From Candidatus Heimdallarchaeum aukensis (GTDB taxonomy: Archaea; Asgardarchaeota; Heimdallarchaeia; Heimdallarchaeales; Heimdallarchaeaceae): a stretch of 64,000 nucleotides of DNA. Below the pieces are notes generated by a model. The model was not told the DNA's origin and made no database searches. It worked only from the letters and a program-made list of their open reading frames with translations. Positions 60,131-62,373 of this stretch are shown one piece after another. The translations under genes were made by a program, and so were the position numbers. Position 1 is the first letter of the stretch, and every line of letters starts with the position of its first letter. Location: positions 2,176,001 through 2,240,000 of the forward strand of contig CP084166.1 of the NCBI GenBank assembly GCA_021513695.1, written 5' to 3'.

Positions 60131-62014
60131 TTGAAATATATGCTACCAATTTTGAATAGTTTGGAAGTAACTGAAATTATACCTATATCAGAATCAGCTA
60201 CACGAAGGTTCCAGTTTTATGCTGGGATAAACGCAATGGTCGCAGAAAATGCTAAAGGAAAAACAACTTTATGTGATATTATTGAGCGTTCAATTTGTTC
60301 AGATGCTCATGCTCAGCGTTATTCTGCTTTTGCAAGAAAAAGAAAAACAAAAGAAGCTTATATCAAGAGCTCATGGTTGATGGATAATGAAGTGCAAATT
60401 CATCAAGCTTTGACTGATGCAGGAATAAGAACAACAGTAATAGATCGCGGTGGAGGAAAGAAGACACTTACAAAACAAGAATATTCTAATTTTTTTAGTC
60501 GAAAACTCCATTTAACCTTAAACGAGTTTCAAGAACTTTTTCAGAGTTTATATTATAAAAGAGAAGATGATTTTTCTCTTCTGGGAAGAACTGAAGAAAC
60601 AGACCCACAATTATTGGCCTTTTTTAAGTTATTAAACAAGTTTACTTCTGGTTCTCCTGACGATATTAGATTAAGACAAGAAATTAACCAGAAAAAAATA
60701 GAAAAAAAAGATCTACAAGATAAACTGCGTAAAATTGAGGAAGAAGAAAATAAGATTAGAACAGTTATGAATACTATTGGTATTTCAGAGGTAAGCGAAG
60801 CCATACTTGATGCAAAATATGATGATTTATCAAGAAAAATTACAGAAAAAAAGAAAGAACTGGAAAATATTGAAAAAGTGAAAAGCCAGATAGAAGAAGA
60901 AATAGACAAAGAAACTGATGAGTTATACAATGTTAAAGATGAACACTTTCTCAACGCAGTAAAAGAGCTAGAAAAAATAAAATCAGAGTTGAGTTTAAAG
61001 AAAAAAGAAAGAGTTCAAGTACAAAGAGAAATAGCCGCTGCATCAAAAGTAGGTAATGAAAAATATGATTACTTGAAAGAAAAAGTATCCAGAAAGCCTA
61101 AATGCGAATTTTGTGGTACAAATTTAGCTGAAGAATGGAATAATAGGTTACAAATAGGTTGCCCACTATGTGGAACAGAATGGGCGAAGTTATCAAGAGA
61201 ATTAAGAGAAGGATTATTTGCTGAACCAGAAAAGCCTGATACTGCAAGCTTGGAATTAAAGTTAGAAGAGATCGATCTTGAGATAAAACAAATAGAAAAT
61301 GAAATCAGAAAAAAAGAAGTAGAAGTTAATGAAGTTAAATCGGCGGAAAGAAAAATCCAAAATAAGATAATAGAACTAAAAACTAAATTAAAGATGAGAG
61401 AAAAAGAAATTAAGAGTTTAACCCAGACAATTCACTCCCTAACAAATCAACGAACTTCCATAAAAACAGAAAAAGAATTTTTAACAACAAAAGTTAATCT
61501 ACAAGAATTATTAAGAAAAAAACTGGACATGCAAAAAAGAATAGACGAAAAACAAGATGAACTTGAAGAATTATTAAAACTACAAAATGTATCACATGAA
61601 CGGAATCAGATATTAGAGAACTTTCAGCAAGCAACACTGGAAATTTTTGGTTATGGAATATTAGTAAATCCAAAGGAGATGTCAATAACACTAATGGTTG
61701 ACCACTCGACTAGAGCATATGAAAGCTTATCAGGAGGAGAAAAATATTTCATAGATATCTGTTTAAGAATAGCAGTATGGAAGTATCTTTTAAAGAATGG
61801 ATTTACAAGACAAGGGATGTTAATTATTGATTCCCCTGAAAACTCACTAGATAATGAAAGACTAGGCTTGTTAGCTGAAGTTTTAAACTCTGAGAAAGAA
61901 AATTTTCTGTTTATTGTTACAACAAGGAATCAAGAGTTCTATGAAAAGTTGGACGCACAAATTATAGATAGCGGAAAATTTGTACAAACATCACTGTTCG
62001 ACTTCATAAAATAA
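60131..62014 (+). CDS. SMC/Rad50/SbcC-like ABC-type ATPase with a central coiled coil carrying a CxxC...CxxC zinc ribbon
   Basis: The N-terminus has GINAMVAENAKGKTTL (Walker A). Residues of about 180-520 are coiled-coil (EKLKKE...) with CEFCGT...CPLCGT near the middle. The C-terminus has LSGGEK (ABC signature) and LIIDSPE (Walker B/D-loop). Confidence 0.55.
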   Translation: MKYMLPILNSLEVTEIIPISESATRRFQFYAGINAMVAENAKGKTTLCDIIERSICSDAHAQRYSAFARKRKTKEAYIKSSWLMDNEVQIHQALTDAGIRTTVIDRGGGKKTLTKQEYSNFFSRKLHLTLNEFQELFQSLYYKREDDFSLLGRTEETDPQLLAFFKLLNKFTSGSPDDIRLRQEINQKKIEKKDLQDKLRKIEEEENKIRTVMNTIGISEVSEAILDAKYDDLSRKITEKKKELENIEKVKSQIEEEIDKETDELYNVKDEHFLNAVKELEKIKSELSLKKKERVQVQREIAAASKVGNEKYDYLKEKVSRKPKCEFCGTNLAEEWNNRLQIGCPLCGTEWAKLSRELREGLFAEPEKPDTASLELKLEEIDLEIKQIENEIRKKEVEVNEVKSAERKIQNKIIELKTKLKMREKEIKSLTQTIHSLTNQRTSIKTEKEFLTTKVNLQELLRKKLDMQKRIDEKQDELEELLKLQNVSHERNQILENFQQATLEIFGYGILVNPKEMSITLMVDHSTRAYESLSGGEKYFIDICLRIAVWKYLLKNGFTRQGMLIIDSPENSLDNERLGLLAEVLNSEKENFLFIVTTRNQEFYEKLDAQIIDSGKFVQTSLFDFIK

Positions 62015-62019
62015 AGTGT

Positions 62020-62373
62020 TTATTCTCCCTCAAATAACTTTGAGTTAATAAGGTTAATCATCTTTTCTTTTAGTTCTAATCCCTTATAGGTTTGTGCAAG
62101 CTTCTCTACCTCTTCAGCTAAATCGTTTAAGTTTAAAACGTATTTTAACCATAAAGCAAGGTCGCTGGAGATATTCATGTCTTCATCAATTCTGTGGGTG
62201 TGGTATTCAATAGAAAAGAATGGAATATAACGAAGAATATCAGCGAGTTCTTTAAGGGATAACGCTGAGCCATAAATTTTAGAAGGGCTCTCGGGGTCTC
62301 TAAAAGTAAAAGGAGGGCTTATAGGCTTAGATAATAATGGTACTTTCTTTTTTTCTGTAACATTTACTGTCAT
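62020..62373 (-). CDS. Hypothetical 117-aa protein
   Basis: The ORF is convergent with the SMC-like gene and has no motif. Confidence 0.3.

Follow-up and report, generated by a model that had tools for sequence, protein, structure and literature searches.

In all domains of life, SMC-like (structural maintenance of chromosomes) ATPases have a part in the organisation, repair and defence of genomes, and little is known of what directs them to replication in archaea. Several described systems come close to the protein reported here. Short LmuB proteins, such as those of Salmonella LmuACB (PDB 9hqu) and V. cholerae DdmABC, have about 600-630 amino acids (aa), an SMC/Rad50-like head and a short coiled coil, with a Walker B motif of the form hhhhD[Q/S/T/E] and zero to two copies of CxxC (PMC12663957). 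Rad50/SbcC proteins belong to the CxxC branch of the SMC superfamily and carry a two-Cys half-site. ASRPs (ClsN of Sulfolobus, Sph1 and Sph2 of Halobacterium) are archaeal, about 600 aa long, carry a zinc hook and are present in Heimdallarchaeota (Yoshinaga et al. 2022, PMC9389158). Finally, Mre11-Rad50 of P. furiosus is recruited to the sliding clamp PCNA (proliferating cell nuclear antigen) via a C-terminal tail on Mre11 that resembles a PCNA-interacting protein (PIP) box (Hogrel et al. 2018, PMC6009593). Here we analyse a solitary gene for an SMC-like ATPase lying behind gyrB and gyrA in a stretch of 64,000 nucleotides of Candidatus Heimdallarchaeum aukensis (contig CP084166.1, positions 2,176,001 to 2,240,000; hereafter the window, whose coordinates are used throughout). 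Judged by its sequence, this stand-alone protein falls into the CxxC branch (Rad50/SbcC/LmuB-like) of the SMC superfamily. Its most distinctive feature, absent from the original prediction for this locus, is an invariant PIP-box-like tail.

The C-terminal tail and its family

The gene and the motif are placed as follows, with residues numbered here and throughout in the 627-aa frame that opens at a TTG codon:

60140..62014, + strand: coding sequence of the SMC-like ATPase, 624 aa from ATG 60140, stop codon TAA at 62012-62014
60131..62014, + strand: open reading frame (ORF) from the in-frame TTG 60131, 627 aa
61985..62008, + strand: PIP-box-like motif QTSLFDFI, aa 619-626, one residue short of the C-terminus

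The 627-aa ORF of the original prediction exists, but the true start is most likely ATG 60140 rather than TTG 60131, because the homologues all begin with MLPIL and the 99%-identical database protein has 624 aa.

The C-terminal peptide bearing the motif is GKFVQTSLFDFIK. The canonical PIP consensus reads Qxx-psi-xx-theta-theta, with QTSMTDFY of p21 as an example (PMC6881253), and the archaeal pattern is Q-x2-[LIVM]-x2-[FYW]-[FYWLIMV], found mostly at the extreme terminus (PMC6009593). QTSLFDFI fits both of them and is close to the p21 sequence. In the core family the motif takes the form QTSLFDF[I/M/V], with Q619 to D624 invariant and F625 at least 90% conserved in members down to 32% identity. 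In second-tier Asgard relatives (E=1e-46 to 1e-26), positions 2, 3, 5 and 6 of the motif vary while the consensus positions are kept, giving the tails QLSLDSFF, QKNLFDFL, QRSIMDFI, QRSIMEYL, NKTLDAFF and ERSLFDYF; in a Hodarchaeales subfamily the tail is PFQVKQLALTKFI or QLSLLQFV. Across 21 sequences, the Leu at motif position 4 is at least 90% conserved. Moreover, the window and the Asgard loci that we fetched contain 188 distinct ORFs of 120 aa or more; the strict terminal motif was present in all 14 that are SMC-like and in none of the 174 others. The Rad50-like relatives do not have it, nor do almost all of the remaining relatives outside the second tier, and the few exceptions that carry a name are Asgard as well. 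In the AlphaFold2 model described below, aa 616-625 of the tail have a predicted local distance difference test score (pLDDT) below 50, that is, they are predicted to be disordered. From these features we infer that the C-terminal tail binds PCNA. In the literature searched, no paper tied a PIP box or PCNA to any SMC-like protein or ASRP, and a 2025 paper on the Asgard replisome makes no mention of such a protein with a PIP or PCNA link.

The family is small. We ran a profile search exhaustively over 1.84 billion cluster representatives. It returned no more than four full-length clusters (50% identity) at E <1e-160, which we call the core family, and a second tier of about 10 full-length proteins. 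Beyond these, the matches are generically SMC-like (1,612 at E <=1e-3, of which only 16 reach E <=1e-30). All family members carrying a name are Asgard (Heimdallarchaeaceae, Heimdallarchaeota, Hodarchaeales, Loki-/Promethearchaeota or "Asgard group"), and the named members of the core family all come from Heimdallarchaeota. A scan of GTDB species representatives with two peptide patterns, which sets a lower bound, found at least eight loci, one per genome, all in Heimdallarchaeota or archaeal metagenome-assembled genomes. The nearest genome, a complete chromosome, is that of Ca. Heimdallarchaeum endolithica PR6, with 95% protein and about 90% DNA identity. Intron-containing tRNAs and the names given to the homologues likewise mark the source of the window as an Asgard archaeon. 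We also considered a viral or mobile origin and rejected it: no relatives were found on IMG/VR viral contigs, and PHROGs gave merely a weak SbcC-like match (31 bits).

Head motifs, coiled coil and zinc module

The original prediction described a split ABC-ATPase (ATP-binding cassette) head, and every motif it quoted could be located in the sequence. The head and arm features are:

60242..60268, + strand: Walker A (P-loop) AENAKGKTT, aa 38-46, with Ala in place of the first P-loop Gly
60284..60322, + strand: family-specific invariant motif ERSICSDAHAQRY, aa 52-64, right behind the P-loop helix
60656..61093, + strand: outgoing coiled-coil arm, aa 176-321 (predicted helices 176-215, 223-305 and 309-321, with a break at 216-222)
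61094..61180, + strand: apical four-Cys zinc module KPKCEFCGTNLAEEWNNRLQIGCPLCGTE, aa 322-350, two CxxC knuckles with a short helix between them
61241..61648, + strand: return coiled-coil arm, aa 371-506 (predicted helices 371-452, 457-484 and 487-506, with a break at 453-456)
61727..61744, + strand: ABC signature LSGGEK, aa 533-538, aligning with Rad50 LSGGE
61817..61852, + strand: Walker B and D-loop MLIIDSPENSLD, aa 563-574
61913..61930, + strand: H-loop region IVTTRN, aa 595-600

Twelve sequences with 32-61% identity to the query make up the core alignment. Its invariant residues are G43, K44, T45 and T46 of Walker A, S534, G536 and E537 of the signature, D567, S568, P569, E570, L573 and D574 of the Walker B/D-loop segment, and T597, T598 and R599 of the H-loop region. 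Two of these differ from what Rad50 has at the same place. First, in a profile alignment with the Pyrococcus and Methanocaldococcus Rad50 proteins, Ser568 stands where Rad50 has its catalytic Glu (LIIDSPE versus LILDEPT, the Pyrococcus segment being LLILDEPTPYLD). Second, the IVTTRN region aligns to THH of M. jannaschii Rad50, so that R599 takes the place of the H-loop His. Because of these two replacements, the protein would be expected to bind ATP but to hydrolyse it slowly. The family-specific motif ERSICSDAHAQRY, in which E52, R53, C56, S57, A59, H60, A61, R63 and Y64 are invariant, is without counterpart in Rad50, in ASRPs or in the second-tier relatives, where the segment reads [IL]ExSLxRD.

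An AlphaFold2 model computed from the 12-sequence alignment (pLDDT 77) predicts a half-head (aa 1-175), an outgoing helix, the Cys module, a return helix, the C-terminal half-head and the tail. The two arms, of about 145 residues each, run antiparallel, and the break at 453-456 in the return arm pairs with the break at 216-222 in the outgoing one. At the apex, the pattern is CxxC-x15-CPxC (CEFCGT, 13 residues, CPLCGT at aa 325-349), with beta-bridges at both knuckles (C325/C328 and C344/C347) and a helix at 332-342 between them, as assigned by DSSP on the model. The four Cys are invariant in the 12 family members, which answers the question whether the CxxC motifs are kept in homologues. Together with P345 of the CPxC motif they are also invariant in 21 sequences down to 14% identity, where the only other invariant columns are the G-K-T of the P-loop and the Walker B Asp; by this comparison the Cys are far more conserved than chance would predict. 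The layout CxxC-x(8-30)-CxxC is found in nearly all relatives of about 600-690 aa, whereas the Rad50-like matches (780-950 aa) carry a single CxxC. The apex is thus predicted to be a complete intramolecular zinc-knuckle or zinc-ribbon site, unlike the half-site hook of the Rad50 type. The zinc element proposed originally is therefore present as a four-Cys module, but dimerisation through zinc is not implied, because all four zinc ligands sit in one chain.

The locus and its surroundings

The genes and signals next to the SMC-like gene are:

54157-56271: gyrB, in the block directly upstream
56282-60091: gyrA, intein-containing, immediately upstream
60104..60111, + strand: archaeal TATA-box-like element TTTATATA, 36 nucleotides upstream of the ATG and within the 48-nucleotide gap between gyrA and the SMC-like gene
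62020-62373, - strand: convergent 117-aa ORF, Pfam DUF5752 (35.6 bits, cutoff 23)

The order gyrB-gyrA followed by the SMC-like gene recurs in six distinct genomes at 47-95% identity (the window with locus L012, L016, L010, L018, L019 with L006, and L023 with L001), so that the placement behind gyrBA noted originally is found in relatives too. The intein of gyrA in the window is 440 aa long (56507-57826, boundary CFVEG...VSHN), and in the 99%-identical locus it has Intein_splicing and LAGLIDADG_3 domains; among the relatives, gyrA of L010 (1711 aa) has two inteins while those of L001 and L006 have none. The SMC-like gene probably has its own promoter, with a short or absent leader, and we find no support for an operon with gyrase, because a TATA-like box lies in the 48-nucleotide gap; L010, L001, L006 and L008 also have TATA-like boxes 30-39 nucleotides 5' of the ATG, evidence that is suggestive only in an AT-rich genome. 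The SMC-type protein MukB of E. coli is functionally coupled to topoisomerase IV, a type IIA topoisomerase, and an SMC-like gene behind gyrB-gyrA in six genomes recalls that pair. The differences are that the connection here is one of adjacency, that the promoter is probably separate, and that the linkage is lost in some lineages.

Besides gyrBA, the core-family gene has no conserved neighbours. As the original prediction had it, no Mre11, kleisin or ScpB is encoded nearby, and we could extend this to 10 kb on either side of locus L012, which is 99% identical. No Mre11/SbcD was found in the fetched flanks (6-10 kb) of the window-like locus and of seven other genomes, and no LmuA, LmuC, Mre11, kleisin, ScpB or nuclease/effector gene adjoins any core-family locus examined. 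The surroundings in the window are of a housekeeping type (polyamine synthesis, hypEF, nuo, MetRS, CysRS and an XPD-type helicase). Four co-directional genes upstream of the SMC-like gene in L003 were considered as partners and discarded, as they are not kept beside it in L020 and L021, nor near it elsewhere.

The convergent 117-aa ORF was first described as unknown. Its position and orientation hold, but it passes the DUF5752 threshold, covering the N-terminal half of that profile (positions 3-105 of 208), and is thus not entirely unknown. Its family shares an invariant PPFxFRDPE...YG motif, and four close homologues could be retrieved. No PDB sequence matched it and the literature search found nothing on it; its AlphaFold2 model is poor (pLDDT 63) and gave no significant fold match (best E=2.6). 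A DUF5752 homologue lies within about 8 kb of the SMC-like gene in five genomes with changing position and orientation, so that the synteny with this ORF is loose. With such loose linkage, few homologues and no fold match, there is no evidence for or against the DUF5752 protein as a partner, and we did not retain it as one.

Two more distant relatives stand in other settings. One is a second-tier homologue of a Lokiarchaeota contig (P0024, tail QRSIMDFI; locus 95-8676 of SHMU01000044.1), which has SocA/Panacea, a SIR2-TPR protein of 712 aa and a HEPN protein as its neighbours. The other is P0059, a 667-aa four-Cys protein without a PIP motif (locus 1444-6607, contig Ga0643812_0003412), encoded in a four-gene cluster in the order 496, 667, 204 and 353 aa. 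The first three genes of that cluster overlap at their start and stop codons, the 496-aa product has a faint methyltransferase match, and the neighbours are of actinobacterial type (DUF397, DUF5753, HTH_31). The P0059 cluster may be a so far uncharacterised defence or mobile-element system of an SMC-like kind. A tblastn search with P0059 against plasmids, made to find an anchor in the Halobacterium Sph genes, gave only a weak Burkholderia match.

The window holds some further features. An insertion or deletion of about 184 bp (62866-63049) lies just 3' of tRNA-Ser(GCT) (62779-62865); it is absent in L012, 98% identical, and present in H. endolithica. It holds a perfect 14-nucleotide inverted copy (62951-62964) of the anticodon arm of this tRNA-Ser (62808-62821), and looks like a partial minus-strand tRNA-like fragment, possibly left over from an integration site. 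Two tRNA genes of 115-118 nucleotides, at 24203-24317 (+) and 30260-30377 (-), were reported by Rfam only and not by ARAGORN, and presumably contain introns; conversely, a tRNA-Ala at 28786-28860 was found by ARAGORN only and is not in the Rfam gathering list. The XPD/Rad3-type helicase (795 aa, 24528-26915, +) has DEAD_2, HBB and Helicase_C_2 domains and an N-terminal extension of about 190 aa. The ORFs at 19544-21340 (-; 598 aa) and 22709-24037 (+; 442 aa) have no Pfam match at E <=1e-5.

Proposed function and relation to known systems

The reading we prefer, which we hold tentatively and with a confidence not far below even, is that the protein, as an SMC-like dimer, is recruited by PCNA, binds DNA, hydrolyses ATP slowly and serves to maintain the chromosome in step with replication. 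In such a scheme, it would form a homodimer via ATP-driven engagement of the heads and probably via the apex too. ATP would be bound and slowly hydrolysed, which would make it a long-lived clamp or switch on DNA. The C-terminal PIP box would dock the protein on DNA-loaded PCNA and so concentrate it at or behind replication forks, where it could serve housekeeping chromosome maintenance by bridging, holding or sensing DNA, be it ends, gaps or sister duplexes. It might also cooperate functionally with DNA gyrase, whose genes come first in most genomes. The solitary gene, the gyrBA order in six genomes, the single locus per genome and the lack of relatives on IMG/VR contigs together suggest a housekeeping character. 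Among known systems, Mre11-Rad50-PCNA of P. furiosus is likewise an archaeal machine of the SMC superfamily with a short C-terminal motif of the PIP type; there, however, the motif sits on the Mre11 nuclease and has no Gln, whereas here it contains the Gln, sits on the ATPase and comes with no nuclease partner.

Several points weigh against this reading. First, what points to PCNA binding is a short linear motif, which begins about three residues past the last predicted head strand and could instead be a structural or self-interaction element. Second, the dimer, the bound zinc, the kinetics of the ATPase and the contact with DNA are themselves predicted features. Third, the linkage to gyrBA is missing in L008 and in a 33%-identity subclade (L003, L020 and L021), the SMC-like gene probably has its own promoter, and the connection with gyrase may be a mere conserved gene order. 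Fourth, the setting of P0024, which resembles a defence island and is unlike that of the core family, keeps a role in immunity open, and the best profile match of the window protein is to a Lamassu model.

That match, to the PADLOC LmuB model PDLC03859 (80.1 bits, E=5.2e-23, aa 23-603 against positions 14-588 of 611), bears on an alternative that we consider unlikely, namely an orphan or effector-uncoupled sensor of the Lamassu type. Such a protein would detect foreign DNA ends or replication intermediates and signal to an unlinked or as yet unrecognised effector, and its PIP box could target it to replicating invader DNA. The size resemblance to LmuB noted in the original prediction extends to the whole protein: besides the full-length profile match, a Foldseek search against PDB lists the 631-aa Salmonella LmuB 9hqu (E=1.6e-14) among the top structures, and LIIDS, with Ser rather than Glu after the Walker B Asp, together with two apical CxxC copies, fits the motif description of short LmuB (PMC12663957). 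The window protein is probably distantly related to short LmuB, and by analogy probably works like it. Also, P0024 in its defence-island-like neighbourhood and the non-PIP relative P0059 in its tight four-gene operon would suit a sensor. However, PDLC03859 matches all four-Cys relatives tested, full length and alike, with 39-106 bits, which is low for a 611-position model, so that these scores indicate remote kinship, not membership. The defining Lamassu trait, an operonic effector, is lacking at the core-family loci, where no LmuA or LmuC is found and the context is syntenic and housekeeping (gyrBA, polyamine genes, hypEF, nuo). The restriction to a single archaeal lineage, with one locus per species-level genome and none on viral contigs, argues in the same direction, and the C-terminal PIP box and the all-Asgard set of named members distinguish the family from short LmuB.

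Somewhat more doubtful still is a divergent ASRP, a coalescin/ClsN- or Sph-like organiser that would compact or compartmentalise the chromosome independently of PCNA as a zinc-hook dimer, with a structural or self-interacting tail. The window protein does have the archaeal distribution and the zinc-hook-type motif in the middle of the coiled coil by which ASRPs are recognised; it shares with them an SMC-related fold of about 600 aa, a stand-alone gene, the occurrence in Heimdallarchaeota (PMC9389158) and a P-loop that begins with Ala (compare APNAxGKTS of ASRPs). Moreover, the ASRP model NF045487 is the top NCBIfam match of the window protein and of most relatives. The score of the window protein is 58.5 bits against a cutoff of 300 and covers aa 183-598, mainly coiled coil, although the model is narrow and every other relative tested fails it too. 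We therefore built a head-only hidden Markov model (HMM) from the 19 ASRPs of the PMC9389158 alignment (ClsN, Sph1/2 and Heimdall LC_3 included). It gave the window protein 14.5 bits and the core family 10-22, barely over an SMC control HMM (5-15 bits) and under many Rad50-like proteins (25-55 bits). The heads are thus not specifically similar, and by these HMM scores ASRP membership is not supported. In addition, the Heimdall ASRPs NHJ00843.1 and OLS27983.1 of PMC9389158 have clearly different head motifs, no PIP box is reported for ASRPs, and this explanation leaves the selective retention of the exact PIP consensus positions in distant relatives unexplained.

A shortened bona fide Rad50 with Mre11 encoded elsewhere is effectively refuted: Rad50 heads are the best PDB matches of our A1 profile (E=2.5e-8), Rad50 7zr1 is the top Foldseek match (E=3e-15, in a list that also holds B. 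subtilis YydD and SMC heads) and the ABC head has the signature and D-loop of that branch, but the NCBIfam Rad50 models stay far below their equivalog cutoffs (PRK03918 46.8 bits versus 700, others 11-34 versus 847-1087, sbcc 33 versus 478.5), the protein is about 250 residues shorter (624 versus about 880 aa) with four Cys per chain and without the catalytic Glu and H-loop His, Mre11 is near no locus examined, and Heimdallarchaeota own separate canonical Rad50s such as RLI69701.1 (PMC9389158 alignment). A canonical SMC protein was set aside as well, given the zinc module in place of a hinge, 624 aa versus about 1,100-1,200, no kleisin or ScpB nearby, and low scores (TIGR02168 28 bits versus 567; Pfam SMC_N 23.8 versus a gathering score of 40). 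Thus, the cautious original description of an orphan SMC/Rad50-like ATPase of LmuB-like size, too short for a canonical Rad50 and possibly chromosome-related in view of gyrBA, is upheld by the motif, profile and locus tests. The matches in Pfam, NCBIfam and PADLOC are all to SMC/Rad50/LmuB-type families, and automated labels such as "ASRP", "LmuB" or "SbcC ATPase subunit" are driven by coiled-coil similarity and not reliable at face value.

Returning to a PCNA-recruited dimer, a bolder form of this proposal seems to us possible rather than probable. The protein would then be the first SMC-superfamily ATPase to dock directly on the sliding clamp, a zinc-capped dimer loaded by PCNA at forks that bridges or holds new DNA, in a cohesion-like or fork-protecting role and possibly with gyrase, as an analogue of the PCNA-coupled establishment of cohesion in eukaryotes.

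What sets this small family apart, with its named members in Asgard archaea only, is the combination of an LmuB/Rad50-like body with a canonical clamp-docking peptide. If the proposal is true, it would connect an SMC-type machine directly to the replisome in those archaea that are most closely related to eukaryotes. As the family also appears related to bacterial Lamassu-type sensors, it would bear, too, on the interconversion of immune sensors and housekeeping SMC-like proteins.

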